Positions 3,985-50,171 of a DNA stretch of 64,000 bases are shown here, piece by piece; the stretch's first letter is position 1, and each line of letters begins with the position of its first letter. Below the pieces are notes generated by a model. The model did not search any database. It was not told where the DNA came from and saw nothing but the letters and a program-made list of their open reading frames with translations. The stretch is from a virus (lineage: Duplodnaviria; Caudoviricetes): positions 291 through 64,290 of the IMG/VR virus record IMGVR_UViG_3300020710_000008. One strand, given 5' to 3'. Position numbers and translations under genes: made by a program.

Positions 3985-4402
3985 AGTTATGCTCCTCTTT
4001 ATCCTCGGTATGTTGTTTTGGCCTCCTTTTGTTCTCAATAATCCAAGCTATGACTTTTTTCTTATTTTCGGCAGTTTCATCAATTTTAGGGCAAAGCTTA
4101 TTGATTTTTTCCACTAGACTCAAATCATAGCTTTTACCGGAAACCTGAGAGTAGTTGCTCCACAGTCCCCCTAATCGCTTTTCTTCAGGATCGGCACATT
4201 GTTGCCTAGGTCTTCTGTGGTTCTCTATCACCCATTGGATAATGTCTGCCTTATTTTTAATTTTAGTGGGTGGACAATTTTCATCTATCCATTTTTTAAA
4301 TTCAGGGCGAAAACTAGGGCTACCAGGGAAGGTGTAAGAAGAAAGGTATCGTGCTAACATTTTTTCTTCTGGGTCTTTGGACTTCTGATTGGGTCTTCGC
4401 AT
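3977..4402 (-). CDS. Helicase-associated (HA)-like repeat protein, truncated in its third repeat
   Basis: Repeats I..W..EN.RRP....DPEE..LG..W.NY; the start ATG overlaps the helicase stop (TGATG). Confidence 0.6.
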   Translation of the reverse strand: MRRPNQKSKDPEEKMLARYLSSYTFPGSPSFRPEFKKWIDENCPPTKIKNKADIIQWVIENHRRPRQQCADPEEKRLGGLWSNYSQVSGKSYDLSLVEKINKLCPKIDETAENKKKVIAWIIENKRRPKQHTEDKEEHNLG

Positions 4403-5928
4403 CAGTGAGCCGCCATCCAAGCTTCGATTCGCTCGATATTTCCATCTACATCAGCAAAAACCTTACCAGTGAGTTTACGGATCACCTCCCCCATCTTTGC
4501 GTATTCAAACTCGTTCCATTTGTCAGAGCCGGAATTCAGAGTCATCTCCTGCATCAGCTTGAGGCTCATGATCTCTTCATACATCAAAGTGTCCACGATC
4601 ACATCATGCGTTCTCTTCTTACCCTTTGGCTTCTTCCCTTCCCCGCTACGATCACGGACCCTATGACGCTTAGGGACTAGGATCTCCATGTGGCTCAGGT
4701 TCTTACCGTTGAACTTGCTGATGAAGTCTTTGTTGTTCAGACTCAGAGCAGCCTGAAGGTAGAACGAGTCCACAGCGGGGTTCATCTTGCTGGTCAGACG
4801 GAAGAAGAACTTATCCTTGCTATCAGGATGCTGGCGAAGGACTCGCGCATACAACTGATAGATACGATTGATGTTACGAGAGCAAGTGAAGTCCACCACA
4901 TTGCACAGAGTAGGCATGTTGAATCCAAGCACACCACGCCTCACCACAATCAAGACCTTGATACTCTCATCCTCGATGAACTTCCCGATATTCTCGTTTT
5001 CCACATCACCTTCGGACTCAGAGAGGATACAGCTAACACCTTTCTCGTCAAGAATAGAACGAATATCTCGTCCCTGCTTGATGGAGTGAGCAGCGATCAT
5101 AGTCTTGTTGAGTTCCCCAAAGACCGCATTGACCTTGTTGAGCTTAACCTTGGAGGCAAAGTTCATGGCATTAATGCTAGTGGCTCCAATCACGCTCTTC
5201 AGGCGGGTCACCATCTCTTCGATCAGGTCATCCAGGGAAGTAGCTGTATCCTCAGTCCTGAGGTCCACCTTGCGCTTCAGGTCACCGTGGATGTTGTAAT
5301 CGCCGGAGATGTCATCCTCCCCCTCTTCTGGGGCATCACTATCAAAGTCTTCGATCTCCTCTTCTCCCTGGCTTCTGAGGTCATAGGAAGACTTCACCAT
5401 TCCGAAGTAGGTATCCTGGACGAAGCCTTCGCCATATACCTCAACACCAGAGGTAATGTGAATAGGACGGTAGGTCTTACCCTGAAGATTATCGTAGACA
5501 AACTTGCTTGGAGTCCCAGTCAAGAGAAGTTCATGCTTGGGTTTGCAAGTCTTGATGATGCTCTGCACCAGCTTTTCAGCGAAATAGAATTCGTGGGCCT
5601 CATCCACGATCAACAGACCAAGCTCCTTTTCGTGGAGCATGGTCTTGATCTTACGAATGGACTGAGGGAGGGTGGTAATGAGATTGGTGTTCCACAGATG
5701 CTTCTCAGCGATCTCGTCATTCCATTGATCCAACAAGACCTTAGTTCCGTGGGTCAAGACCATGACGATCTCCCCACGATCTAGATAATCCTGGGCAATA
5801 GAGAGGGCCATAATGGTCTTACCTCCTGAGGGGCAAGTAGATAGGACCACAGACTTATGGTCCTTGAGGCTGTCTTTGCAAGCCGCTACAGCGGTCTTCT
5901 GGTAGGGGCGTAGTTCTGGCAGGGCCAT
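4402..5928 (-). CDS. Superfamily 2 (DEAH, ResIII-like) helicase
   Basis: LRPYQ, CPSGGKT, IVDEAH, LTGTP, GFNMP, QLYARVLR; SD GGAG. Confidence 0.85.
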   Translation of the reverse strand: MALPELRPYQKTAVAACKDSLKDHKSVVLSTCPSGGKTIMALSIAQDYLDRGEIVMVLTHGTKVLLDQWNDEIAEKHLWNTNLITTLPQSIRKIKTMLHEKELGLLIVDEAHEFYFAEKLVQSIIKTCKPKHELLLTGTPSKFVYDNLQGKTYRPIHITSGVEVYGEGFVQDTYFGMVKSSYDLRSQGEEEIEDFDSDAPEEGEDDISGDYNIHGDLKRKVDLRTEDTATSLDDLIEEMVTRLKSVIGATSINAMNFASKVKLNKVNAVFGELNKTMIAAHSIKQGRDIRSILDEKGVSCILSESEGDVENENIGKFIEDESIKVLIVVRRGVLGFNMPTLCNVVDFTCSRNINRIYQLYARVLRQHPDSKDKFFFRLTSKMNPAVDSFYLQAALSLNNKDFISKFNGKNLSHMEILVPKRHRVRDRSGEGKKPKGKKRTHDVIVDTLMYEEIMSLKLMQEMTLNSGSDKWNEFEYAKMGEVIRKLTGKVFADVDGNIERIEAWMAAH

Positions 5929-24336: not shown

Positions 24337-25563
24337 CTAATTTAGGCCAATTACATTCTTTATTGCACTTGCAGTGCGGTTCTTCAGTGATTGTGCTTTT
24401 ATACTTGCAACTGTTTCATCGGTTACAACAATATCTACGTCATCAATGATGGGCTGTAGTAGGGCAATAGTAGCTATATCCTTGTGCATCTCTGCTTCAA
24501 CCAACAGCATGAATAGTTCTAGACGCTGAGGATTTTCCTTAATGGCCACAATTTGCTTCTCTTCAGGGGTGAGGTCACGATGAATTTCCTCTTGTTCATT
24601 CAGAGAAATAGTAGACAATTCCCCACTTTTTAGTTTAGCAATTGTGTCTTTTGAAATAGCGGAGAATGTGGTCTTCTCTGTTTCTACACGAGTCTTGTAA
24701 GGGACTACAGAAATTTTGTTAACATAATCCATCACTTTAGCAGGGGCTTCATAGAGCTTATCATAGGGTAGAGTATAGATGATCTTAAGAACGTGATCAA
24801 CTTCATAATCAGTTAATTCATACTTCTTCTCAAGCATCTTCATGATGCCACTCTTATCTAGAATTTTAACAGCCGTAACACGAAGCGAGGAGCGCATTGT
24901 CAACGCTCTTTCAAGCATGTCAATTTCTGCGAATACCAAGGGCTCTTCGTGGGTCTGGTTGAAGTCAGCTTCTTTAGCTACTTCACCGGTCTCCACTTTC
25001 ACCCATTCATTCAGAAGAGGTAGTTCTGCATAATCATCCACTAGTCCAACTAGATCAGACCTAAACAAAGAGAATAACCTAAGGGCAACTTTATTAGGTT
25101 CTCCCTTTACATTATCAAAATAGTTGGGGCATTCTTGATGGATATATTTCCACAGAACCTCAGAAGGCTGCTTATGAAATTCTTGAGGATCTAGACCGTC
25201 AACCATAATCATTTTGCGGAAGTGGCGACCTTCTCCTAGAATCTCAGAATAGGTCTCTAGCTCGGCCATCGAATGACTCATGATGGAGTTGCTATCTACA
25301 TATTGCTTGCCTAGTCTAGCATCACCACCGAAAACAGCGGCCCTATCAATGACAAACTGGTTTTCAATGGTCTCAAAACGAGGATCAAGAATCATATTCC
25401 AAGTAGGCCCTAGTGTCTCCACCATGCCTTTGTCTCCCCACAGTACTTGATTCAGCACTTGGCAGTATTCGTACTCTTCCTGGGACACATGATTTTGATC
25501 AATCATGTAGATTCTCTTACCATCCCTAAGTCCGAGCAGATTTCGGATTTCAAACGAACTCAT
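24337..25563 (-). CDS. Hypothetical protein (408 aa)
   Basis: Long ORF with AAGGAG SD and a CAGTAATA motif upstream. Confidence 0.75.
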   Translation of the reverse strand: MSSFEIRNLLGLRDGKRIYMIDQNHVSQEEYEYCQVLNQVLWGDKGMVETLGPTWNMILDPRFETIENQFVIDRAAVFGGDARLGKQYVDSNSIMSHSMAELETYSEILGEGRHFRKMIMVDGLDPQEFHKQPSEVLWKYIHQECPNYFDNVKGEPNKVALRLFSLFRSDLVGLVDDYAELPLLNEWVKVETGEVAKEADFNQTHEEPLVFAEIDMLERALTMRSSLRVTAVKILDKSGIMKMLEKKYELTDYEVDHVLKIIYTLPYDKLYEAPAKVMDYVNKISVVPYKTRVETEKTTFSAISKDTIAKLKSGELSTISLNEQEEIHRDLTPEEKQIVAIKENPQRLELFMLLVEAEMHKDIATIALLQPIIDDVDIVVTDETVASIKAQSLKNRTASAIKNVIGLN

Positions 25564-25595
25564 TAAAACTCCTTTAACTTCCTATTACTGACAAA

Positions 25596-26090
25596 TTAGG
25601 CCCAAGAAAGGCCGAACTGTGCTAATAGTGTATTTAAATCAGTCATACCCAGAATCTGTAGGTTTTCAGAATTGTTGATAGTCACATCGTATAAGATGGT
25701 GTTCTCATTAGTATGAGCAATGTGGTCGGTTTCACAGAACGGATCTGGATTTACAATGATGTTCCAGACTGGTCCGTTGTAGAAGTAATTATTGACCCCT
25801 ACCAAAACTCCCCCACCACCACTTATAGTTAGTTTTCTAGTAGCTGGGATAGTAACCGTTACTGTAGCGGTTGCAGTTGCATGGGTAGGAACTGGCTGGC
25901 CATCAGTGACGTATAGGGTGTAAGTAGTAGTAACTGGAGGAGTAACTGTAAAAGGCACTCCACTAGAGATAGGAATGTTACCGGGTAGGATAAAGCCTCC
26001 ACCTCCAGCAAATACACCAGTTAGGGTAGTGGAAGCGGCTAGGGAAATAGTCCCTGAAGCGGCGGCGAAAGAGGTAATAGAAACGGCCAT
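25596..26090 (-). CDS. Ig/PKD-like beta-rich protein, possibly virion-associated
   Basis: VTPPVTTTYTL.VT...ATATVTV Thr/Val-rich pattern. Confidence 0.55.
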   Translation of the reverse strand: MAVSITSFAAASGTISLAASTTLTGVFAGGGGFILPGNIPISSGVPFTVTPPVTTTYTLYVTDGQPVPTHATATATVTVTIPATRKLTISGGGGVLVGVNNYFYNGPVWNIIVNPDPFCETDHIAHTNENTILYDVTINNSENLQILGMTDLNTLLAQFGLSWA

Positions 26091-26319
26091 TGAGTAAGCT
26101 CCATGTTCATCAAAGAGTCGAAAAGTTTATTATTTCTTACCTTAGACTCTTTCAACTAAACGTTTTAGCTCCTGAAATAGTTCATCGGCTCCCTCTTTGC
26201 TCTCGTTACGAAAGGGGATACAGAGCATCCCAATGGCTTCCGCTTGGGCTTCTTCCGAATGTTCCCATATGAGATTAGTCTTGAGTCTTGCTAGCACTAC
26301 AGGATTCATTTATTTCTCC

Positions 26320-26748
26320 TTATTCCGTTGATAAAATTGGTTGTTTTGTACTTGAGGTAGTTTCAATTAAGAGATTTAGATTGGTGAGGTATGTGGCATA
26401 CTCTTCTTTGAGAGCAGTTAATTGATTTTGCAATTTTCTCATGAGCCAAGTTCTGGCTTTAGAGTTGAAAGCTATTTCATTTACCACACCTTCACTGTAG
26501 TACAGAGGAGTGTTAGAAGAGGGAAATTTCTCATCAATTCCAATAATCTCAAACTCTTTGCCCTCTGCCATAATTAATTTAATTTCACCCATAAATAGGG
26601 ATCTGCTATGCACTCTTCCATGAAGGGTTTCACAATACATACGAATGTCATGCAAAAGATATCTAATATCTTTTTGCCATATATCTATGGCTACTTCTTC
26701 TCTGTCTTCAACTGCCCAATTATGTCCCATATGTTCTAATATTCTCAT
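26320..26748 (-). CDS. Hypothetical protein
   Basis: ATGA coupling to the ligase C-half. Confidence 0.6.
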   Translation of the reverse strand: MRILEHMGHNWAVEDREEVAIDIWQKDIRYLLHDIRMYCETLHGRVHSRSLFMGEIKLIMAEGKEFEIIGIDEKFPSSNTPLYYSEGVVNEIAFNSKARTWLMRKLQNQLTALKEEYATYLTNLNLLIETTSSTKQPILSTE

Positions 26749-27689
26749 AGGTCATCCCATTCTGTTTCAAACTTGCTATCGTTTTTTAGGCCCATGCCGT
26801 TTGCTTCCAGAGTCTTAACTAGCCAGTCGCGTTTAAGCAGGGGGAGATTCAACTCCTTAGCCTTGGATAGCTTGGATTGACCGGCTCCTTCACCTACTAA
26901 GAGATGAGTTAACTTTTTGCTTACACCTGTCTTCATTGTTGCACCAAGAGCAGTCAGCATCTTAGACAGAGTTTCACGTTCAGTCGGCAAGAACTCACCA
27001 GTAATGCACATCACATACCCGGCTAGAGGTAGCACTTTGGTTGGATCTGACTGTAGCAGAATAAGGGATTTAGGTCTTACCCCAGCTTCATACAGAGCTT
27101 TGCATATAGGCTCAAGAGTAGGGAGAGCCTTACGAATCTCAGCCTCTTTCTTCTCTCCAATTCCGTCAATCATGGAGTAGTCACCCTTGGACAACAGGGA
27201 GGGTAGAATATCCATATCGTTAGGACCAAGACGGAACTGCATAGAAAGCATCTTGGAGAGGGATTTAGCGATACCAGGGATACCCAAAGCAGCTAGCCAA
27301 CGATCCCAATCCCGAGTCTTGACTTTCTCAAGTGAGTTTGCCATCTTAATCAGCAAAGCGCCAGAATAACCCATCTTGTTTAACTTAGCTGATATAACCT
27401 CTTCGCCTTTGGTTTCAATACCTTTAACGATACCATCAGAAAACTCAAATAGATCGGGGAGAGAAGTAATATAGCCATCTTCCACTAATTTAGTGATGGT
27501 CTCAGGGCCTAGTTCATCAATCTCCAGAATATCTCTACCAGCAATGTAGGCCAAATAAGCCGCTAAACGTCCAGGACAGCTTGCATTATAGCAAGTGTGG
27601 GAAAGCACTCCGGACTTTGGGTCAGCCTCTTCTTTGATGGGCTCTCCGCAAGAAGGACACTCAGTTGGGGGAGTTAGAATTGTTGGCAT
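26745..27689 (-). CDS. ligA: NAD-dependent DNA ligase, C-terminal half (Zn finger, HhH, BRCT)
   Basis: CPSCG...C.N..CP, LGIPGI, IDGIGEK, CITG...R..L...L..LGA....VSKK...L.VGE..G.SKL.KA; own GGAGG SD 8 nt before the ATG. Confidence 0.9.
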   Translation of the reverse strand: MPTILTPPTECPSCGEPIKEEADPKSGVLSHTCYNASCPGRLAAYLAYIAGRDILEIDELGPETITKLVEDGYITSLPDLFEFSDGIVKGIETKGEEVISAKLNKMGYSGALLIKMANSLEKVKTRDWDRWLAALGIPGIAKSLSKMLSMQFRLGPNDMDILPSLLSKGDYSMIDGIGEKKEAEIRKALPTLEPICKALYEAGVRPKSLILLQSDPTKVLPLAGYVMCITGEFLPTERETLSKMLTALGATMKTGVSKKLTHLLVGEGAGQSKLSKAKELNLPLLKRDWLVKTLEANGMGLKNDSKFETEWDDL

Positions 27690-27727
27690 AAAAGTAACCT
27701 CCGTTAAAAATACTGACTTTTGGTCCC

Positions 27728-28432
27728 TTGATAAAGGAGAATATGAACATGAACAACCTCACATCTGGAATTTACAAAATATGTAATCTTGTGAATGGCA
27801 AGATTTATGTGGGGCAGACGGTAAATTTACATCATAGAAAGGATCAGCATATTTCAGCGTTAAAGACGGTCAAGCACTCCAACCCTCATTTGCAATCTGC
27901 TTGGAACAAATATGGTGATTCTATGTTTGAATTTTCTATTCTTGAAGTGTGTCACTTTGCTCAGTTAAATGAGCGAGAAAATTTCTGGATAGAATTTCTG
28001 GAATCTTGGAAAAGTGATAGGGGGTATAACCTTGATAGACTAGCCCAGGGTACTGGTCCTCGTAGTCCCGAAACAAAAGCACTAATAAGTAAAAAATTAA
28101 TGGGGCATCCTCATTCTGAGGAGGCTCGTAGGAAAATATCGGCTTCAAAACTTGGTCATAAATACGGCCCATGCAGTGAAGAGAAAAAAATTAATATATC
28201 TAGATCCAAAAAAGGTAAGAAGTTTTCTGAAGAGCATAAGAAGAAACTATCAGAGGCCAAAATTGGTAAGCCGGGGAATAGGACTGGAGGGTTGGTATCA
28301 GACGAAACCAGAGCCAAAATGAGAGCGGCTAAGATAGGTAAACCAAGTCTTCGTAGAGGAACGAAGCACACGGAAGAAACAAAAGCGAAGATGAGAGCGG
28401 CTAAGGCAAAACACGCACAATCTGAGGAATAA
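27728..28432 (+). CDS. GIY-YIG homing endonuclease with NUMOD3-like repeats, antisense between the ligase halves
   Basis: SGIYKI.N..NGKIYVGQ; HSEEAR, FSEEHK and HTEETK repeats; AAAGGAGA SD, likely start 27743 or 27749. Confidence 0.9.
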   Translation: MIKENMNMNNLTSGIYKICNLVNGKIYVGQTVNLHHRKDQHISALKTVKHSNPHLQSAWNKYGDSMFEFSILEVCHFAQLNERENFWIEFLESWKSDRGYNLDRLAQGTGPRSPETKALISKKLMGHPHSEEARRKISASKLGHKYGPCSEEKKINISRSKKGKKFSEEHKKKLSEAKIGKPGNRTGGLVSDETRAKMRAAKIGKPSLRRGTKHTEETKAKMRAAKAKHAQSEE

Positions 28433-29603
28433 CCTCTCCACCTCTTGCTACCTCTACCTGACAAGGAACCTCTTTAATACCTTTATCCAACATCCAAGAC
28501 CAATTATTCAAGTTAGCACGACTTACCATTACTCCTCCGATGTTTACCGGGACCAACTCTCCAACGGGGGTTAGTCCTCCGCTACGACCTACCTGCCAAG
28601 TGACAGAGATTAAAGTGGTCACAGCCCCCTGAGAGGGGTATTTGAACGCTACGGCCCAATTAGGGCACTTTGAGCCAACTCCCACTTCCTTACGAAGAGT
28701 AGGAGAAGCCACCTTGATGACATACCCATCAGTGAGGATACCTCGGCCCTTATGCATAGCAGTATCACGGTAGATTCTGAGATGTCCATCCAGTGCTTTA
28801 TTCATCTCACTGGCAGTATGGAAGACAGAAAAGTCAGGATTGAAGTTTTTTGTAATGGTTCTGGAGAAGTAGACAATCTGGTGATGAGCAAAATCAGCAC
28901 TAAGATGTTTCTTGGCTAGATACTCCGCTGGAATCCCGCTGACATCCCATGGGTAGAACTTCAGACCTCTGGCCTTAACCGCAGCAAGATCCTGAAGTTT
29001 CATAGACCCAGCCGCTAAGTTACGAGGAGAAGCATACTTCTTTTCAGATTCTGCGTTGATGGCATCAAATTGCTGGGTGGTCATGTAGACCTCCCCACGG
29101 ACTTCAATAAGACTGTCAGGATAAAATTCGGGATTTAGGGTAACTTCAATGGCATCAGAGGCCACCATCTGGCGAGTCACATCTTCCCCGTATTCCCCAT
29201 CTCCGCGAGTCACAGCTTTAACTAGCTGACGGTTCAGGTATTGAACCGCTAAACTCGCGCCATCAATTTTTGGTTCAACCACAAAAGCGGCCCCCTCAGG
29301 AAATTTGTCAACAAAAGCTTCTACATTATCAAAAGTATACTGATTTTCTAAAGATAACATTGGCCTAGAATGACGAACTCTACCCTTATCGTCCACAATG
29401 TCAGATCCCACCTTAGTTAAAACCGTGGCAAGTCCAGTAAATTGTGGAAGTTTAGACACCATACTTTTTAGGTCTTTTTCTAGCAAATCGTAATGCTCAT
29501 CAGTCATGATGGGCTGGGCCTTAGCGTAGTAGGCTTTACTAGCTTCCATTAATTTTTTATTAGTTTCTATGATTAGGTTTTTACCTGCTTCTTCGAAATC
29601 CAT
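28401..29603 (-). CDS. ligA: NAD-dependent DNA ligase, N-terminal half (adenylation and OB domains)
   Basis: EPKIDG, TRGDG..GEDVT, EVRGEV, PRNLAAGS, DG.VIK, WAVAFKY, QVGRSG.LTPV, GEVIPQI; likely ATG 29603 after GGGAG. Confidence 0.92.
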   Translation of the reverse strand: MDFEEAGKNLIIETNKKLMEASKAYYAKAQPIMTDEHYDLLEKDLKSMVSKLPQFTGLATVLTKVGSDIVDDKGRVRHSRPMLSLENQYTFDNVEAFVDKFPEGAAFVVEPKIDGASLAVQYLNRQLVKAVTRGDGEYGEDVTRQMVASDAIEVTLNPEFYPDSLIEVRGEVYMTTQQFDAINAESEKKYASPRNLAAGSMKLQDLAAVKARGLKFYPWDVSGIPAEYLAKKHLSADFAHHQIVYFSRTITKNFNPDFSVFHTASEMNKALDGHLRIYRDTAMHKGRGILTDGYVIKVASPTLRKEVGVGSKCPNWAVAFKYPSQGAVTTLISVTWQVGRSGGLTPVGELVPVNIGGVMVSRANLNNWSWMLDKGIKEVPCQVEVARGGEVIPQIVRVLP

Positions 29604-29629
29604 ATAACTCCCGTAAAAACAAACTTTCA

Positions 29630-29637
29630 AGTATACT
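29630..29637. promoter_or_regulatory. Palindromic AGTATACT, candidate bidirectional -10 element
   Basis: Lies between the divergent ligA-N and GIY-YIG genes, with an SD downstream on each strand. Confidence 0.45.
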
Positions 29638-29651
29638 GATGGAGGTAGTTC

Positions 29652-30458
29652 ATGCCGTTCTTATCTACTCCAAAGGCTTTGGGGGTCTCAGGAGTTTATG
29701 CCATTCTAAACACTAATACTGGAAAAAGCTACATTGGAAGTTCTGTGGATCTCAGAAAGCGACTGCTGAAGCATTTTGATTTCCTAGAAAAAGGAGGCCA
29801 TCACTCTTTAAAACTCCAAAATTCGTGGAATAAACATGGAGCAAACGCATTCGATTGTAAAATTTTAGAACTTGTAGGCAAAGAAGACCTCCTTACAAGA
29901 GAACAGTTTTTCTTAGATTTCTTTAAGTCTAGTGAAGAAGGGGGTTATAACATATCAAGGATAGCCGGATCTCCAATGAGTGGGAAAAAGCACAGTGCAG
30001 ATACAAAACAAAAAATGAGTGAGCGAGGAAAACTGAGGAGGCATACTGAGGAAGAGAAGAAGAAAATAGGGGAAGCAAATTCAAAAAGAGTGTGGAAAAA
30101 AGAAAGCATTGAAAAAATGAGCAACTCTTTGAAAGAATTAGCAAAAACCAGGATTGATTCCGATACACTTAGGCTTGCAAAAAGTGAGGGATCTAAGCAA
30201 GGGTGGGCGGCAATTAAGTCCGATCCAGAAAAATATGCTAAACGATTAGAACAACTGAAGGTGAGTTTTAGGCATATTTGGACAGAAGAAGAGAGGGCGG
30301 AAATGAGTAGGAAAAGGAAGGGTGTAGCCCTGTCAGAAGAACATAGAAAAAAGATATCAGAAGGGTCAAAGGGCAAGCCGAAGTCAGAAGAACATAGAAA
30401 AAAGATATCAGAAGCTCATAAACTAAGATGTGCTAAAATTAAAAAAGCCGCTGAGTAG
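29652..30458 (+). CDS. GIY-YIG homing endonuclease with NUMOD3-like repeats
   Basis: SGVYAI.N..TGK.YIGSS; SEEHRKKISE repeated; GGAGG SD. Confidence 0.9.
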   Translation: MPFLSTPKALGVSGVYAILNTNTGKSYIGSSVDLRKRLLKHFDFLEKGGHHSLKLQNSWNKHGANAFDCKILELVGKEDLLTREQFFLDFFKSSEEGGYNISRIAGSPMSGKKHSADTKQKMSERGKLRRHTEEEKKKIGEANSKRVWKKESIEKMSNSLKELAKTRIDSDTLRLAKSEGSKQGWAAIKSDPEKYAKRLEQLKVSFRHIWTEEERAEMSRKRKGVALSEEHRKKISEGSKGKPKSEEHRKKISEAHKLRCAKIKKAAE

Positions 30459-30466
30459 CGGCTTTT
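30443..30466. terminator. Bidirectional intrinsic terminator
   Basis: AAAAGCCGCT-GAGT-AGCGGCTTTT between convergent genes. Confidence 0.75.
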
Positions 30467-30729
30467 ACGCGAAGGTGTCAATGTTTTGCCCTATCGCCTC
30501 GTTCACTATAGGTACAGGCTCTCGGCTTTCAGAGTCCATTTTTCTATGAGGTAAAGTAGAATAAGAACCCAGTCCTGAAATCCCCATAATTCGGGAAACT
30601 CTAAGACTATGCTTTGCCACTAGAACATTAGGTTTGATGTCGATCCAAGGAGGAATCAAAATGCCCTCCAACCAATCATGAAAAAGTCTTTGATAACATG
30701 AGAGGTGGCTCCAAGAGCTATGTCAATCG

Positions 30730-31758
30730 TTACAATCCAAAAAACGACTTTAACAGCGAACCAAGCTTTTTTACCCATGACATTAAAAAATTCGTGCATG
30801 ACTGCTCCTTATTTTTGACTTTCAAAATTTCATGTCTAACTGCGTTTATTTGTGTGTTCTTATACCATTGATTCAGCCATTCATAATCTGGCTTCTCTCG
30901 GAGAGTGGAGGTTTCAAACAACCTATCTCCCTTTGCCATCAGTTCGTCAATGAGGTTGCTGACTTCTCCATTAGTGAGCTTACCATTACGGATGTCAAGC
31001 AGGAGTTCCTTTTCAGGACGAGGGTAAGTTACCGTCCCATACTCAAGGATTTCGTTCATTTCGCTTATAATGCGTACCGCATGATATAGGGCCTTCAAGT
31101 CCTTACCATCGTTCTCCTTGGCTTTCACGGCGCGAGTCCCGTAGGTTTTGCGAAGTTTGACCAGGGCATCCAACCACAGCTTAACAGTGGTGGTCTCCCC
31201 AAAGGATTTACCACAGATTTCCATCAAACGGGTCTCCACCTCACCCTTGACATCTGTCCAGAATCTAACCGTTGGGCGACCAGTAAAAGCCACCGTAAGT
31301 TGATCCCAGCAAAGTCGAGGGAGGAAGTTGGGGGGATAGCCACTAAGGAAGAAGATCACTTCATCTAAAAGCTGGAGCTTCTCACCTTTGAGGGAGTATT
31401 TGACAGCTTGATCTCGGGCATACCCAACAAAGGGCTTCAGAGCCTTGGAGACTACCTTGTCCTTGTTGAGAACCAACTCCTCCCATTCAGGAGTAGACTC
31501 CAGCCACATATTCTGGGGAGCAAATAACATAGAATAAGCCACAGTCTGACCAGAAGCCATCAGGTCAGCAAAAGCCTTGATGTAATACATTTCATGCTCT
31601 TCGTTTTTTTCCTCATCCTTCCACTGGATATTAGTGGGGGCAAGACTGACAAGCTCATCCAAAGACTGAGTGAACACACCCTTGAAATCCTTATCGGAGG
31701 TAGGCTGAGCCACACCATAAAGGTGAGAGCCGTATAGACATTTAAACAGGGTCTTCAT
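30730..31758 (-). CDS. Pol-beta-superfamily nucleotidyltransferase (PF10127-like)
   Basis: YGSHLYG...TSD.D.KG; K.L.HA.R...E..EIL..G. Confidence 0.8.
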   Translation of the reverse strand: MKTLFKCLYGSHLYGVAQPTSDKDFKGVFTQSLDELVSLAPTNIQWKDEEKNEEHEMYYIKAFADLMASGQTVAYSMLFAPQNMWLESTPEWEELVLNKDKVVSKALKPFVGYARDQAVKYSLKGEKLQLLDEVIFFLSGYPPNFLPRLCWDQLTVAFTGRPTVRFWTDVKGEVETRLMEICGKSFGETTTVKLWLDALVKLRKTYGTRAVKAKENDGKDLKALYHAVRIISEMNEILEYGTVTYPRPEKELLLDIRNGKLTNGEVSNLIDELMAKGDRLFETSTLREKPDYEWLNQWYKNTQINAVRHEILKVKNKEQSCTNFLMSWVKKLGSLLKSFFGL

Positions 31759-31810
31759 TTAACTTCCTTTGTGCGTTGTTAGAGTTCCTTGTCTGGCTCT
31801 TGGGCAAAAA

Positions 31811-31972
31811 CTATTCGCGGCTGTAGTGAATGAGTCTGCCGTGTTCCTCGGCAAACCCAGGACGATCCGGCTCCGGGGAGGAACAGCATTGACCTGGCTC
31901 TGCGCCACAAGTTGGGCACTTGCGTTCATGGGCATCGGAAGACCAATCAAAGGGGATGAGGTCAGAGTCCAT
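31811..31972 (-). CDS. Small zinc-finger protein (53 aa)
   Basis: CPTCGAEPGQCC...H..R; AGGAG SD. Confidence 0.55.
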   Translation of the reverse strand: MDSDLIPFDWSSDAHERKCPTCGAEPGQCCSSPEPDRPGFAEEHGRLIHYSRE

Positions 31973-31990
31973 CGTGGCTCCTGGGCAGGA

Positions 31991-32137
31991 TCAACGCTTA
32001 ACGCGAAGGTGACTAAGGAACTTGATAGGGTGTTTCAACCCACAGCGCCAGCAGGGAATGGCAAAGGTACAGCCGTGGTCACAACGCCAAAAGGTGCCAC
32101 GGTCAATCATGATCGGGTGGGATTCGTAGGCATTCAT
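31991..32137 (-). CDS. Small Cys-rich protein (48 aa)
   Basis: WRCDHG...CWRC; AGGAG SD. Confidence 0.5.
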   Translation of the reverse strand: MNAYESHPIMIDRGTFWRCDHGCTFAIPCWRCGLKHPIKFLSHLRVKR

Positions 32138-42949: not shown

Positions 42950-44209
42950 TTATAGGTCATCATCGTCAAAAGCGGTGACGCGAACTACATTTTCTTCTTC
43001 TTCAACGCTTTCAGAGTCACCAGCTAAGAATTTATCATTTTGAGTAATTTCAGTTGAATAACCACCCTTATCCTCTTCAATTGCGGCGGCTACAAGAACC
43101 TTTAAACGAGCCAAAACTTCAAAATCAGGCTCGGTTACTAGATTACGAATAGCTTCATCCTGAGAGTCGTAGGTAGCAATAGGCTTGTCCTCATTACCCA
43201 CAATATACTTCTTACCCTTATTTTTGATAAGGCCATAGTTACGAGCTAGCTCACGAACAGAAATCCAGTCATCTAGGCCGAACCCAGGACGAAGCCAAAG
43301 ATGATACTCACGATAACCACCAGTGGTGGCCTTGTTCTTGATTATACGAACTTTAACCTTAGTGGCAACATAGTCACCCTTATTATCACCCGGTTCTAGA
43401 ATAAAAGGATCTGGAGTTCCCGTAGCACTCTTGTAACCACCGGCCCTATAAGCCTTAGCTACATTAACTTCAATAGACACGGAAGGGATAAAACGAACTG
43501 AATTGCCTCCAGGCATAGTATAAGCTAGATTGGTGATAGAAGGGTATTTAACGGCTTGCATTGCTTCTTGGGTCATCTCAATTCTAGCACGAATCTGGTT
43601 AACCATGAGGAACAAGCAATCGTACTTCATAGCATAGGGCATGAGAATATCAAAGAACTTCTGCATACCTCTAGCATGTTCACCAACCTGAGCCTTCATA
43701 GCCTGACCACTCATGATGTCTTTTTCATCCACCATAGACTTCATACGAGGAATAGAATCAAATACGAATAGCTTAACTCCGGCCTTCATAAACACGATGG
43801 TTTGCTTGATAGCCTCATCCATGCTATTAGGTCTGTAGACAGCCAGAGCAGAGCGACTAGTGTCTACTCCGATGTCACGAAGATAATTACCTGTGCAAGT
43901 TCCCTCAAAATCGAAGATAACAACAGGCTCATCCTCGGACTTTTGATAAGCCTTAACGAATGAGTAGCAGAGTGTGGACTTACCGCCGTGTTCCTTACCA
44001 TGAATATGATAAACACGACCACCACGAGGAAGGCCCTTTAAGCGGAGTACGTTATCAAATACGATTGAGTTAGTGGGAGTGAATCTCTCATCAACATCGC
44101 ACTTTAGGACAGTTGGGCCATCCTCCCCCATGATGCTCAAAGCCTCTAGAAATGAGGACTTAACATCTTTTGAATCAAATGTTGCGTTTCTTAAAGTCTT
44201 CTTTGCCAT
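42950..44209 (-). CDS. recA: RecA/UvsX-like recombinase
   Basis: GLP.GGR...I.GKE.GGKST, FDFEG, VFDSI, NQIR, PGGN..RF..S, KNK. Confidence 0.92.
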   Translation of the reverse strand: MAKKTLRNATFDSKDVKSSFLEALSIMGEDGPTVLKCDVDERFTPTNSIVFDNVLRLKGLPRGGRVYHIHGKEHGGKSTLCYSFVKAYQKSEDEPVVIFDFEGTCTGNYLRDIGVDTSRSALAVYRPNSMDEAIKQTIVFMKAGVKLFVFDSIPRMKSMVDEKDIMSGQAMKAQVGEHARGMQKFFDILMPYAMKYDCLFLMVNQIRARIEMTQEAMQAVKYPSITNLAYTMPGGNSVRFIPSVSIEVNVAKAYRAGGYKSATGTPDPFILEPGDNKGDYVATKVKVRIIKNKATTGGYREYHLWLRPGFGLDDWISVRELARNYGLIKNKGKKYIVGNEDKPIATYDSQDEAIRNLVTEPDFEVLARLKVLVAAAIEEDKGGYSTEITQNDKFLAGDSESVEEEENVVRVTAFDDDDL

Positions 44210-47486: not shown

Positions 47487-48204
47487 GCTCCTTTAAATAA
47501 TTAATTCTGTCATCCATCTCTGGTAGGAAGTCCAACAGTGTTACATCCACACCTGGGATTCCGTTACCTGAGGCTAATTTTACTTGAGGGGTTTTGCTTT
47601 TCACTATTAAGTCAACTGTATTAGCTCTAGTCAATTTCATAGTGGGGAGATTTAAAACTAATTGTCTAAAACTTGAAGTCATTGATGGATGTTGATCAAT
47701 AAACTGTGGCCTAGATTTTACTACAATCCAGGTTGGATGACCCGCAGATTGCCTGTTACTTATTACGAATTCGTGCCACTGCGAAGCCTTCTCATAATGC
47801 AAGAAAACTGGAGCATTGATAATAAGAAGGTCTACAGAGTATAAAGCCGCCATTTGTTGGGCATTATCCCCACTGGGAACTGCATGAGACATTAGTTCTG
47901 TGGGGGATACAATCTTCCAACTCTTTTCAGGCATTTTGCGCCTTATTAGCGCGGTCCTAAGATGAGCCTGCCAAATACCATTGTCCTCACATTCAATGCA
48001 TAAATTGGTACGAGCTTTAAGTGGTTCTAAGAGCTTAGTTGACTTTAAGAAATGAAAGTCCTTAAGAGGACTAGTGTACTCTTTTAATAGGGCGATACCG
48101 ATACAGGTGCAGGGCTCCCTGAGATTCTCCCCTATGGCAATTGTTTTGTTGCCATGACACTTAGGACAAACTGAGGTCTCCGCCGAGAAGACTGATATAA
48201 CCAT
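47428..48204 (-). CDS. DnaC/IstB-like helicase-loader homolog with degenerate P-loop
   Basis: N-terminal CPKC...CTC; DLLII and R...G.PTWI pattern; no Walker A. Confidence 0.45.
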   Translation of the reverse strand: MVISVFSAETSVCPKCHGNKTIAIGENLREPCTCIGIALLKEYTSPLKDFHFLKSTKLLEPLKARTNLCIECEDNGIWQAHLRTALIRRKMPEKSWKIVSPTELMSHAVPSGDNAQQMAALYSVDLLIINAPVFLHYEKASQWHEFVISNRQSAGHPTWIVVKSRPQFIDQHPSMTSSFRQLVLNLPTMKLTRANTVDLIVKSKTPQVKLASGNGIPGVDVTLLDFLPEMDDRINYLKEHVNEWKRKASINNGNDLES

Positions 48205-50171
48205 TAAAACTCCCACTTAGCAAGGTCAGCCTCACTCACTGATACTCTCTTTTTCTCTTTCTTTTTACTCTCTGGTTGATCAAAGGACATTTTGTAATCA
48301 GAACCTTCTAATTCAGCCTCTTTAATCTGCTTGCCACTAATGAAATCCCCCATCTTTATATTCTTAACATGTGCCTTTAGAAGCTTTAGGAATTCAGAGT
48401 CATCATTAACCATTTCCATACCTGATGCAAGGTCCAAATCATTGGAGTCATTGAGTAGCCCTGCGGAATAGGACTCTCCCAGGATAGTCTCAAATAGCTC
48501 TCCCTTGCCCTTTAAGGTGTCAATGGCATATTCATCTATGGTTCCTTTGGCGGGGACTACATGAAGCGTACAGGCACTATGGGGGCTTGCCATTCTAACC
48601 ATACGACCAACTAGCTGAATAAGCACTCCCCAACTCCAAGGAGCGTCTAGAAGAACCATGTGAGCCGCTTGCTGTAGATTAACCCCCTCAGCAGCAGCGG
48701 TATTGATAAATAGTAGGTTGTAATTAGGGTCATTCTGGAATAATTGTTTATTTATTTCACGTTGTTTCTCATTCTCGGCTCCAGTGATACGGAGGAATTT
48801 GCGATCCGTGAAATGGCCGTTCTTGGTAATGGCTTCGAAACGGTCAATCCAAGTCCTGAATTTGGTAAATACAATAACTTTCTCTCCTGCTAGATCACCT
48901 TCTAGTAAATCTAATAAAACCTCCTCTTTAGGGGATAAATTCTTAGTGTGGAACGCCTTTAAATCATGTTTTTCTAGAAGACATGGGTGGTTAGCAATCA
49001 TTTGAGTGACAGCTAACATAGTCATGGCATTATCAGGATCACGCTCTTTCTCATAAAGATCCCCATGAACATCCTTTTTCACCATAGGCGGGAGAATGTA
49101 TTCCCCAAGAGGGATATCGTGCAAAATAAGCTTAGATTGATACTTATCGAGGTCCACTGGATGATAAATAGTAGACAATTTTGGTAGCGGCTCTTTAACC
49201 TGAGCTTGGGATCTACCATAATAAAAGGGTCTCATTCCCTCTTTGAATTTTTTAACATTTTTATAACCCTCTAGCTGATCTTTGTAAATACCCTTACCAA
49301 CATGAACTTGTCTATAGATACAGAATTCTGACCTAAATGGTTTCATGGGGCCAAAGGGACGAATGCCAATTGCTACTGCAATAGAGTAAAATTCATCTAG
49401 AGAATTTTGAATGACAGTAGCGGTCATGGCCCAAATAGCAGCAATATAAGGCTGAATTTTAAGAATCATCTTTCTATTTTGAGAGGTGGTTGATTTAAAT
49501 TTTTGGCACTCATCTGTGATTAAAATGAGCCTATCCCCATATTTTTTCATTAAGGCTACTAGAGCTAATACTTCTGGAGAAGTCTCTTCTTTTTGGCCTT
49601 CGTTTACAGGATTACCATCTTGGTCAAATTCTCCCTCTATAGTCCTTCTTCGGCCCACTAGAGAGGAATATTTGCAAACTAGGACATCTGTATCACCATT
49701 AAATAGGTCCTCAATTTGTTCTAGTCTAGCTTCAGACCCCTTCTTCTTCTTATACTTATCTTGAAGTACTTCAACTTTTAAAGTGGAAAAGTTCTCATAC
49801 TCACTCTGCCATTGATAGGTAGTAGATTTAGTCCCGAAGACGATCACCTTCATCCCTGGACGTTTGTGTAAATGATAGGCTGATCCTACAATTGCTGAAA
49901 TGGTTTTACCTAACCCTACTGCATGACCATCAATGTAACGATGCATCTTGATCATGTGGGCTATAGATTGAGTTTGGTAATTACGAATATCAAAGGGCTT
50001 ACCGGTTTTAGTTATCTTTCGAATAGTTGGGGGGATCTGAATTGGAATTGGACCCTCTTCAGGATCATGACATCTGATTCGGTACAGTAACTCAAGGGTC
50101 TTGTGAGAAAGACCCATTTTGTCTGTATAGTCTGTGATTAAAGGACAAGCCTCTTCCTCTTCAGCTATCAC
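48204..50171 (-). CDS. SNF2-family helicase
   Basis: AVGLGKT, TDECQ, MTATVIQN, KVIVFT, EGVNLQ.A, QLVGRMVR. Confidence 0.9.
   Translation of the reverse strand: MIAEEEEACPLITDYTDKMGLSHKTLELLYRIRCHDPEEGPIPIQIPPTIRKITKTGKPFDIRNYQTQSIAHMIKMHRYIDGHAVGLGKTISAIVGSAYHLHKRPGMKVIVFGTKSTTYQWQSEYENFSTLKVEVLQDKYKKKKGSEARLEQIEDLFNGDTDVLVCKYSSLVGRRRTIEGEFDQDGNPVNEGQKEETSPEVLALVALMKKYGDRLILITDECQKFKSTTSQNRKMILKIQPYIAAIWAMTATVIQNSLDEFYSIAVAIGIRPFGPMKPFRSEFCIYRQVHVGKGIYKDQLEGYKNVKKFKEGMRPFYYGRSQAQVKEPLPKLSTIYHPVDLDKYQSKLILHDIPLGEYILPPMVKKDVHGDLYEKERDPDNAMTMLAVTQMIANHPCLLEKHDLKAFHTKNLSPKEEVLLDLLEGDLAGEKVIVFTKFRTWIDRFEAITKNGHFTDRKFLRITGAENEKQREINKQLFQNDPNYNLLFINTAAAEGVNLQQAAHMVLLDAPWSWGVLIQLVGRMVRMASPHSACTLHVVPAKGTIDEYAIDTLKGKGELFETILGESYSAGLLNDSNDLDLASGMEMVNDDSEFLKLLKAHVKNIKMGDFISGKQIKEAELEGSDYKMSFDQPESKKKEKKRVSVSEADLAKWEF

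Follow-up and report, generated by a model that had tools for sequence, protein, structure and literature searches.

How does a DNA ligase gene come to be carried as two separate genes, and can their two products still act as one enzyme? The question is raised by a 64,000-nucleotide (nt) stretch of a Caudoviricetes phage (IMG/VR record IMGVR_UViG_3300020710_000008, positions 291 to 64,290), referred to here as the window. In this stretch, ligA, the gene of the NAD-dependent DNA ligase LigA, is interrupted by an antisense GIY-YIG nuclease gene, at the linker that joins the OB fold to the Zn finger. We consider it probable that a GIY-YIG gene inserted into the linker of ligA, giving two cistrons whose products reassemble into an active ligase.

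Anatomy of the interrupted ligA

The N-terminal half of the ligase (N-half, 'subunit A') is encoded on the minus strand at 28401-29603. It begins at the ATG at 29603, and its 400 amino acids (aa) comprise domain Ia, the adenylation domain and the OB fold (Pfam DNA_ligase_aden PF01653, 2.4e-49; DNA_ligase_OB PF03120, 1.1e-20). The protein ends in ...GGEVIPQIVRVLP, also given as ...RGGEVIPQIVRVLP, directly followed by the stop. The C-terminal half (C-half, 'subunit B'; 26745-27689, minus strand, 314 aa) begins with MPTILTPPTECPSCGE and carries a Cys4 Zn finger, a helix-hairpin-helix (HhH) region and a BRCT domain, with a Pfam match to BRCT at 1.2e-15 and a weak one to HHH_5. Between the halves, on the plus strand, lies a free-standing gene of 227 aa with GIY-YIG and NUMOD3 domains (27749-28432). 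The module order OB, Cys4 finger, HhH, BRCT is preserved and spread over two polypeptides. Superimposed on the sequence of Escherichia coli LigA (2OWO), the break falls at residues ~395-398, just ahead of Cys408.

The initial annotation, made from the sequence alone, had described a ligase split by an antisense GIY-YIG gene and cut at the OB/Zn-finger boundary. The open reading frames, the raw sequence and Pfam agree on the former, and the alignments put the break in the linker. The finer structural details of that description hold as well. The N-half and the nuclease gene converge and share 32 nt at their 3' ends (28401-28432), so the nuclease stop lies within ligase sequence, where its TAA is antisense to the conserved VIP codons. 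The ligase TAG (plus-strand CTA, 28401-28403) falls within the second of two direct copies of a 33-nt NUMOD3 repeat of the nuclease (28301-28333 and 28373-28405). At the other end, a spacer between the two divergent starts (27690-27748) contains both ribosome-binding sites, AAGGAG for the nuclease and GGAGG for the C-half. The latter stands 8 nt upstream of the ATG, and the C-half restarts with a Shine-Dalgarno site and start codon of its own, as had been proposed.

Intact sister alleles and a foreign-looking OB end

Three relatives of the window carry an uninterrupted ligA of 716-718 aa, and the inserted nuclease gene is absent from all of them. One is L001, an IMG/VR contig whose ligA (716 aa) is 84% and 91% identical to the N-half and C-half of the window, respectively, and aligns with E. 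coli LigA 2OWO at 3.7e-72. The others, P0202 and P0214 (718 aa), fall in the same 90% clusters as the window sequences. Compared with the window, the intact alleles are 83-92% identical in the nucleotidyltransferase (NTase) domain and 90-92% identical in the C-half.

The region next to the break behaves differently. In the three split alleles of this clade (the window, P0082 and P0205), the last ~65 aa of the OB fold are 100% identical among themselves and 52-55% identical to the intact alleles. In the window, this divergent OB-end tract covers aa ~336-400 of the N-half (28401-28632, minus strand) and is linked to the split allele. The blastn identity between the window and L001 ends at 28632, and nucleotide identity to L001, 0.75-1.0 elsewhere, drops to 0.50-0.60 in the tract. 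The proportion of synonymous differences (pS) between the two is 0.73 in the tract and 0.445 upstream of it. Such raised synonymous divergence marks the tract as foreign DNA rather than as the result of fast protein evolution in place. Outside the OB end, the split and intact alleles share variants as a patchwork.

Judging from these comparisons, the OB-end tract is probably a co-converted flank from a distant donor. The pattern fits a recent spread of the nuclease gene into several backbones, with the flank carried along, and T4 seg and mob genes are known to spread with their flanks (PMC2988022). No variation is seen in the 227-aa nuclease protein across 29 contigs, nor any close variant of it; at least three N-half variants flank its gene, and the exact window sequences of the N-half and C-half occur on 6 and 22 contigs, respectively.

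Mosaicism is also seen at L164, another split locus, whose OB end is near-identical to that of the intact L144, and whose NTase domain groups with those of L107 and L109. By sequence comparison we regard L164 as another mosaic around the break, the second one after the window.

Improbable rejoining of the halves by splicing

Genes of homing endonucleases are common in introns and inteins, and one phage DNA ligase is on record as broken up by a split intein together with a free-standing nuclease (PMC2677866). The two halves might likewise be rejoined, through a group I or group II intron with an antisense reading frame, trans-splicing, translational bypass or a split intein. We regard such rejoining as highly improbable. 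The initial annotation had counted fewer than 60 nt of non-coding DNA at the insert and had judged this too little for a self-splicing core. Indeed, the non-coding DNA between the two divergent starts amounts to just 53-59 nt, depending on the choice of nuclease start. A scan of 25000-32000 against Rfam by E-value returned nothing at E <= 1, and in folding, the ligase-sense RNA that spans the insert has no advantage over shuffled sequences (z = +0.41).

Nor is there room for an intein. In the N-half 7 aa follow the VIP motif, and in the C-half 10 aa precede the first Zn-finger Cys, giving two tails of 17 aa in total, compared with the 20-aa linker of the intact allele. With the intact linker accounted for by the tails, neither broken end has sequence left over for an intein, and no intein block was recognized, in keeping with the earlier statement that intein motifs are missing. 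Elsewhere, 0.2-3.5 kb of unrelated genes on the same strand lie between ligase halves broken at this point, which rules out a common splicing element.

The same break in other phages

A blastn search of the locus against isolate phages found no close relatives, and protein-level matches reach 43% identity at best. The break itself recurs. End alignments of the window with phage T5, phage Tunturi_5 and eight metagenomic split loci reveal the same break in the OB/Zn-finger linker. Stand-alone C-halves (302-324 aa, 38-72% identity) all begin no more than 10 aa before the first Zn-finger Cys, and stand-alone N-halves (376-417 aa, 35-97% identity) all end a few residues past R-x-G-x-x-I-P.

In T5 (AY543070), ligA (T5.116, 323 aa) and ligB (T5.117, 259 aa) are separated by a 202-nt spacer that has two promoters (PMC3632103). 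Subunit A of T5 ends in ...RAGGVIPCIVERVYD at its stop, and subunit B starts with MKIEIPTQCPSCG, 7 aa before the first Zn-finger Cys. The initial annotation overlooked this gene pair, which is annotated with the same cut and widespread in phages, and the arrangement in the window is correspondingly less novel. The closest isolate for both halves is Tunturi_5 (40% and 43% identity), a cultured jumbo phage of Acidobacteria (Tunturiibacter). In its genome (PP885688.1; L204, 83460-88691), gp116 is the N-half and gp108 the C-half, with seven genes between them, including one for thymidylate kinase. Each of the two is annotated as 'NAD-dependent DNA ligase', and the published description of the phage is silent on the split.

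We surveyed 79 ligase loci of uncultured phages in IMG/VR, roughly a quarter of which are split at the OB/Zn linker. The C-half lies 0.6-1.5 kb downstream of the N-half in 11 of the 79; in another seven, the N-half stops at this point too, and the stretch examined revealed no C-half. In a tree of 70 sequences built on the NTase domain alone, 12 changes between the split and intact forms are needed, at least 9 of which are forced by well-supported branches. Two clades are uniformly split, the T5-like one (13 sequences), which is old, and that of Tunturi_5 (5 sequences). In the clade of the window, the split alleles are nested among intact ones. The OB/Zn linker is a recurrent and tolerated fission point of phage LigA.

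One residue near the break is suggestive. In an alignment of 70 phage LigAs, position -6 of RxGxxIP (the Asp of 'IGD'; residue 380 of the window N-half, six residues ahead of RGGEVIP) is occupied by Cys or Ser in all but one of the 31 split forms (30 of 31), and 25 of 39 intact forms have Asp there. Across 9 independent contrasts, the change from Asp to Cys/Ser follows splitting in the same direction in 3-4 and in the opposite direction in none, which is not significant (p = 0.125).

The gaps between the halves hold various genes. In L106 the gap is 3.5 kb of same-strand genes. In L134 (7076-8104, minus strand) and L164 (6770-7741, minus strand), it is occupied by an antisense DUF7487 gene (E = 1e-45 to 1e-53), which overlaps the end of the N-half convergently by ~98 nt, a geometry like that in the window. 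The two DUF7487 proteins have Cys-rich N-termini, and the one of L164 shows a weak match to the restriction-endonuclease fold. From these features, the DUF7487 insert is probably a different, uncharacterised nuclease family. Between the ligase halves of five T5-like loci (L185, L187, L188, L189 and L192) lie genes for thioredoxin and for a T5orf172-domain protein, the latter fused in L188 to treble-clef Zn-finger and CapR domains. The gaps of further split loci contain unknown open reading frames.

Conservation and predicted association of the two halves

The residues required of a ligase are retained in the split form. According to the alignments, the N-half keeps K112 of KxDG, D114, G115, R133, R169, E171, K297 and K321; a comparison of 16 sequences shows no variation at K112 (in EPKIDG) or at the other motif positions. 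The residues of domain Ia, OB motif VI and the four Zn-finger Cys are likewise conserved in the halves.

By co-folding residues 70-400 of the N-half with residues 1-215 of the C-half, a check the initial annotation had called for, we obtained an interface score (ipSAE) of 0.67, against 0.01 for the best of three controls, although the pass may come from the model's memory of solved full-length LigA structures and so may report likeness rather than binding. For comparison, 58 of 80 solved complexes attain that mark, as do 2 of 110 mismatched pairs. Between runs, at least 95% of the contacts are shared, and the pLDDT of the partner is at least 86. In the model, residues 333-344, 367-371 and 376-381 of the OB fold face residues 2-48 of the C-half, comprising its N-terminal tail and the Zn finger. 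With the exception of 333-335, the predicted interface residues of the N-half all fall within the OB-end tract.

These results bear on the idea that the halves took up separate jobs and no longer form a ligase, the N-half serving, for example, as a stand-alone adenylyltransferase or to bind NAD, and the C-half acting through BRCT and HhH in DNA binding or recruitment. It draws on the phages in which the halves are more than 3 kb apart and on the loci in which no C-half lies within 6 kb (L159, L162, L173, L178, L179, L182 and L191). On the other hand, the halves co-occur wherever the sequence is long enough, all ligase motifs are conserved, including OB motif VI and the Cys4 finger, and the co-fold sets the Zn finger on the OB fold by a wide margin over the controls. 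We consider separate jobs improbable.

A recent, non-functional disruption deserves more attention. In this case, the insertion would have killed ligA, the phage would live on the LigA of its host, and the halves would be open merely because the event is young. An identical nuclease on 29 contigs is in line with a recent spread, the clade of the window also contains intact alleles, and the selection measured after splitting comes from other clades. However, the C-half has its Shine-Dalgarno site and ATG at the exact start position of stand-alone C-halves down to 38% identity, and the stop of the N-half matches that of T5, Tunturi_5 and about 30 other split N-halves. Both halves are open in all three split alleles of the clade, which are ~5% apart in the NTase domain. 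The split clades are old and under purifying selection. Overall, a dead gene seems to us unlikely.

Selection was measured as the ratio of nonsynonymous to synonymous substitution rates (dN/dS), which the initial annotation had proposed for both halves. In the T5-like clade, where every member is split, dN/dS is 0.10-0.18 for both halves, indicating purifying selection on each. Between the window and L001, dN/dS is 0.10 for the N-half (aa 1-334) and 0.03 for the C-half, values that mostly reflect the time before the split.

Taken together, the two-chain LigA suggested initially is supported by the break shared with the viable phages T5 and Tunturi_5, the purifying selection in other clades, the retained residues and the co-fold. 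On these sequence and modelling grounds, the split ligA very likely encodes a functional two-subunit LigA, its activity being a prediction.

Several points weigh against this view. Selection after splitting is seen in clades other than that of the window. The literature searched mentions T5 ligA/ligB at the level of annotation only, with no biochemical study, and we found in it no experiment on any split LigA. The promoter scan at the locus gave only weak consensus matches, no better than chance, among them a promoter-like one on the plus strand at 27683-27711, and it shows no outstanding promoter for the C-half, whose expression could in addition be lowered by convergent transcription from the nuclease gene. 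A donor of the OB end was not found among the sequences compared, in which the best candidates are 56-59% identical. Finally, in domain deletions from the Shuman laboratory, the Ia-NTase-OB part of E. coli LigA alone reportedly seals no nicks, and if so, function depends wholly on association in trans.

Proposed origin of the break

We propose that a free-standing GIY-YIG gene of the I-TevI-like type landed antisense in the OB/Zn-finger linker of a phage ligA. The nuclease gene would have arrived with ~200-230 nt of foreign OB-end DNA on one side and ~60 nt on the other. The outcome would be two cistrons, one for Ia-NTase-OB (400 aa) and one for Zn-HhH-BRCT (314 aa), and their products most likely reassemble non-covalently through the contact of the OB fold with the Zn finger into a nick-sealing enzyme, as we suppose for the T5 ligA/ligB pair. 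The identical foreign OB end travelling with the nuclease gene points to a homing-endonuclease cassette with a co-converted flank. Homing as the route of entry would draw on the phage-encoded UvsX-like recombinase of the window, and the OB end may be co-converted DNA or DNA immune to cleavage.

The window appears to be part of a large phage genome, with nearly all genes on the minus strand. Its replication and recombination genes recognized by PHROGs are the UvsX-like recombinase, two helicases and a nucleotidyltransferase (42950-44209, 48204-50171, 4402-5928, 30730-31758).

A further, tentative idea, which we hold to be possible but doubtful, is that the OB/Zn break is a transmissible trait. 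The nuclease gene and a 'split-competent' OB end would form a cassette that converts a one-chain ligA into a two-chain one; its OB end would have become adapted to binding the separate Zn-finger subunit in trans, and the cassette would move by homing or by recombination. The Cys/Ser at residue -6 of split forms and the presence of interface residues in the tract fit this idea. If true, it would explain the origin of T5 ligA/ligB and the at least 9 independent transitions.

Relation to known split genes

The arrangement combines two known kinds, phage genes split by free-standing homing endonucleases and the two-subunit NAD ligase of the T5 type, and it reveals no new kind of system. What is new is that the nuclease gene still lies antisense in the break, that intact alleles exist at ~90% identity, and that the linker is recurrently split across phage ligases.

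As in the window, T5 and T5-like phages have the ligase broken at the identical residue and encoded in separate cistrons, each with its own start. T5 differs in having no nuclease gene, a 202-nt spacer and shorter halves (323 and 259 aa). All members of the T5-like clade are split, and the clade is old, whereas the window has the nuclease gene in place and intact sister alleles. Tunturi_5 shares the break and, unlike the window, has seven same-strand genes and no nuclease gene between the halves.

A gene split by a homing endonuclease is known from nrdA/mobE of Aeromonas phage Aeh1, gene 39/60/mobA of T4 and gene 43A/43B of Aeromonas phage 25 (PMC2988022, PMC3045599). Like the window, these three systems have a free-standing nuclease gene in an essential gene of DNA metabolism, two polypeptides and intact relatives. 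Activity of the split enzyme has been demonstrated for Aeh1 NrdA and for gp43, and reassembly of the window's ligase halves is predicted. In contrast to these systems, the host gene in the window is ligA, and the nuclease is of the GIY-YIG rather than the HNH-type mob family; its gene runs antisense to ligA and overlaps it convergently by 32 nt.

The 'fractured genes' described by Dassa et al. (2009; PMC2677866) combine split inteins with a free-standing nuclease, and one of them is a DNA ligase. Those genes resemble the window in that a phage gene of DNA metabolism is in two pieces with a GIY-YIG-type gene between them. However, their pieces carry split-intein halves that rejoin the protein, whereas the ends in the window are without intein sequence.

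The two-gene NAD ligase of T5 has been annotated for about twenty years, and the literature searched holds neither an account of its origin nor a test of joint function. The locus in the window catches the splitting of such a gene in the act, with the nuclease gene in place, intact alleles at ~90% identity in the same phage population and a visible recombination tract. It therefore bears on how homing endonucleases remodel essential genes, and it makes the OB/Zn linker a naturally validated split site for engineered two-part ligases.

The inserted nuclease and its GIY-YIG neighbours

The inserted nuclease matches GIY-YIG PF01541, NUMOD3 and SegE_GIY-YIG PF19835 in Pfam. Its N-terminal domain resembles the catalytic domain of I-TevI (1MK0/1LN0, E = 1.6e-12), with the GIY, YVG, Arg, Glu and Asn aligned. 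The start is most likely the ATG at 27749, which is favoured by the 227-aa form on record and by a better spacing from the AAGGAG site, with 27743 and 27728 as less probable alternatives. Like I-TevI and the Seg-type nucleases of T4, the protein has an N-terminal GIY-YIG domain followed by NUMOD3 repeats, and, as with those nucleases, the gene is present in some alleles and absent from others (three split, three intact) and has a divergent flank. Unlike I-TevI, it is not encoded in an intron, and its homing target and cleavage are predicted. Its nearest relatives in IMG/VR do not exceed 39% identity, and of 80 such loci, none lies close to a ligase gene.

A second free-standing GIY-YIG/NUMOD3 gene (29652-30458, plus strand; Pfam) is located directly upstream of ligA and divergent from it. 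It is 36% identical to the inserted nuclease, occurs on 26 contigs, and is 91% identical to the copy beside the intact ligA of L001 (588-1394). We notice a homologue of this gene (33-39% identity) in the same upstream position in distant phages with NTase domains of just 34-37% identity, the intact L144 (2740-3336) and the split L164 (5476-5940). From such gene neighbourhoods, ligA may be a repeated target of GIY-YIG genes.

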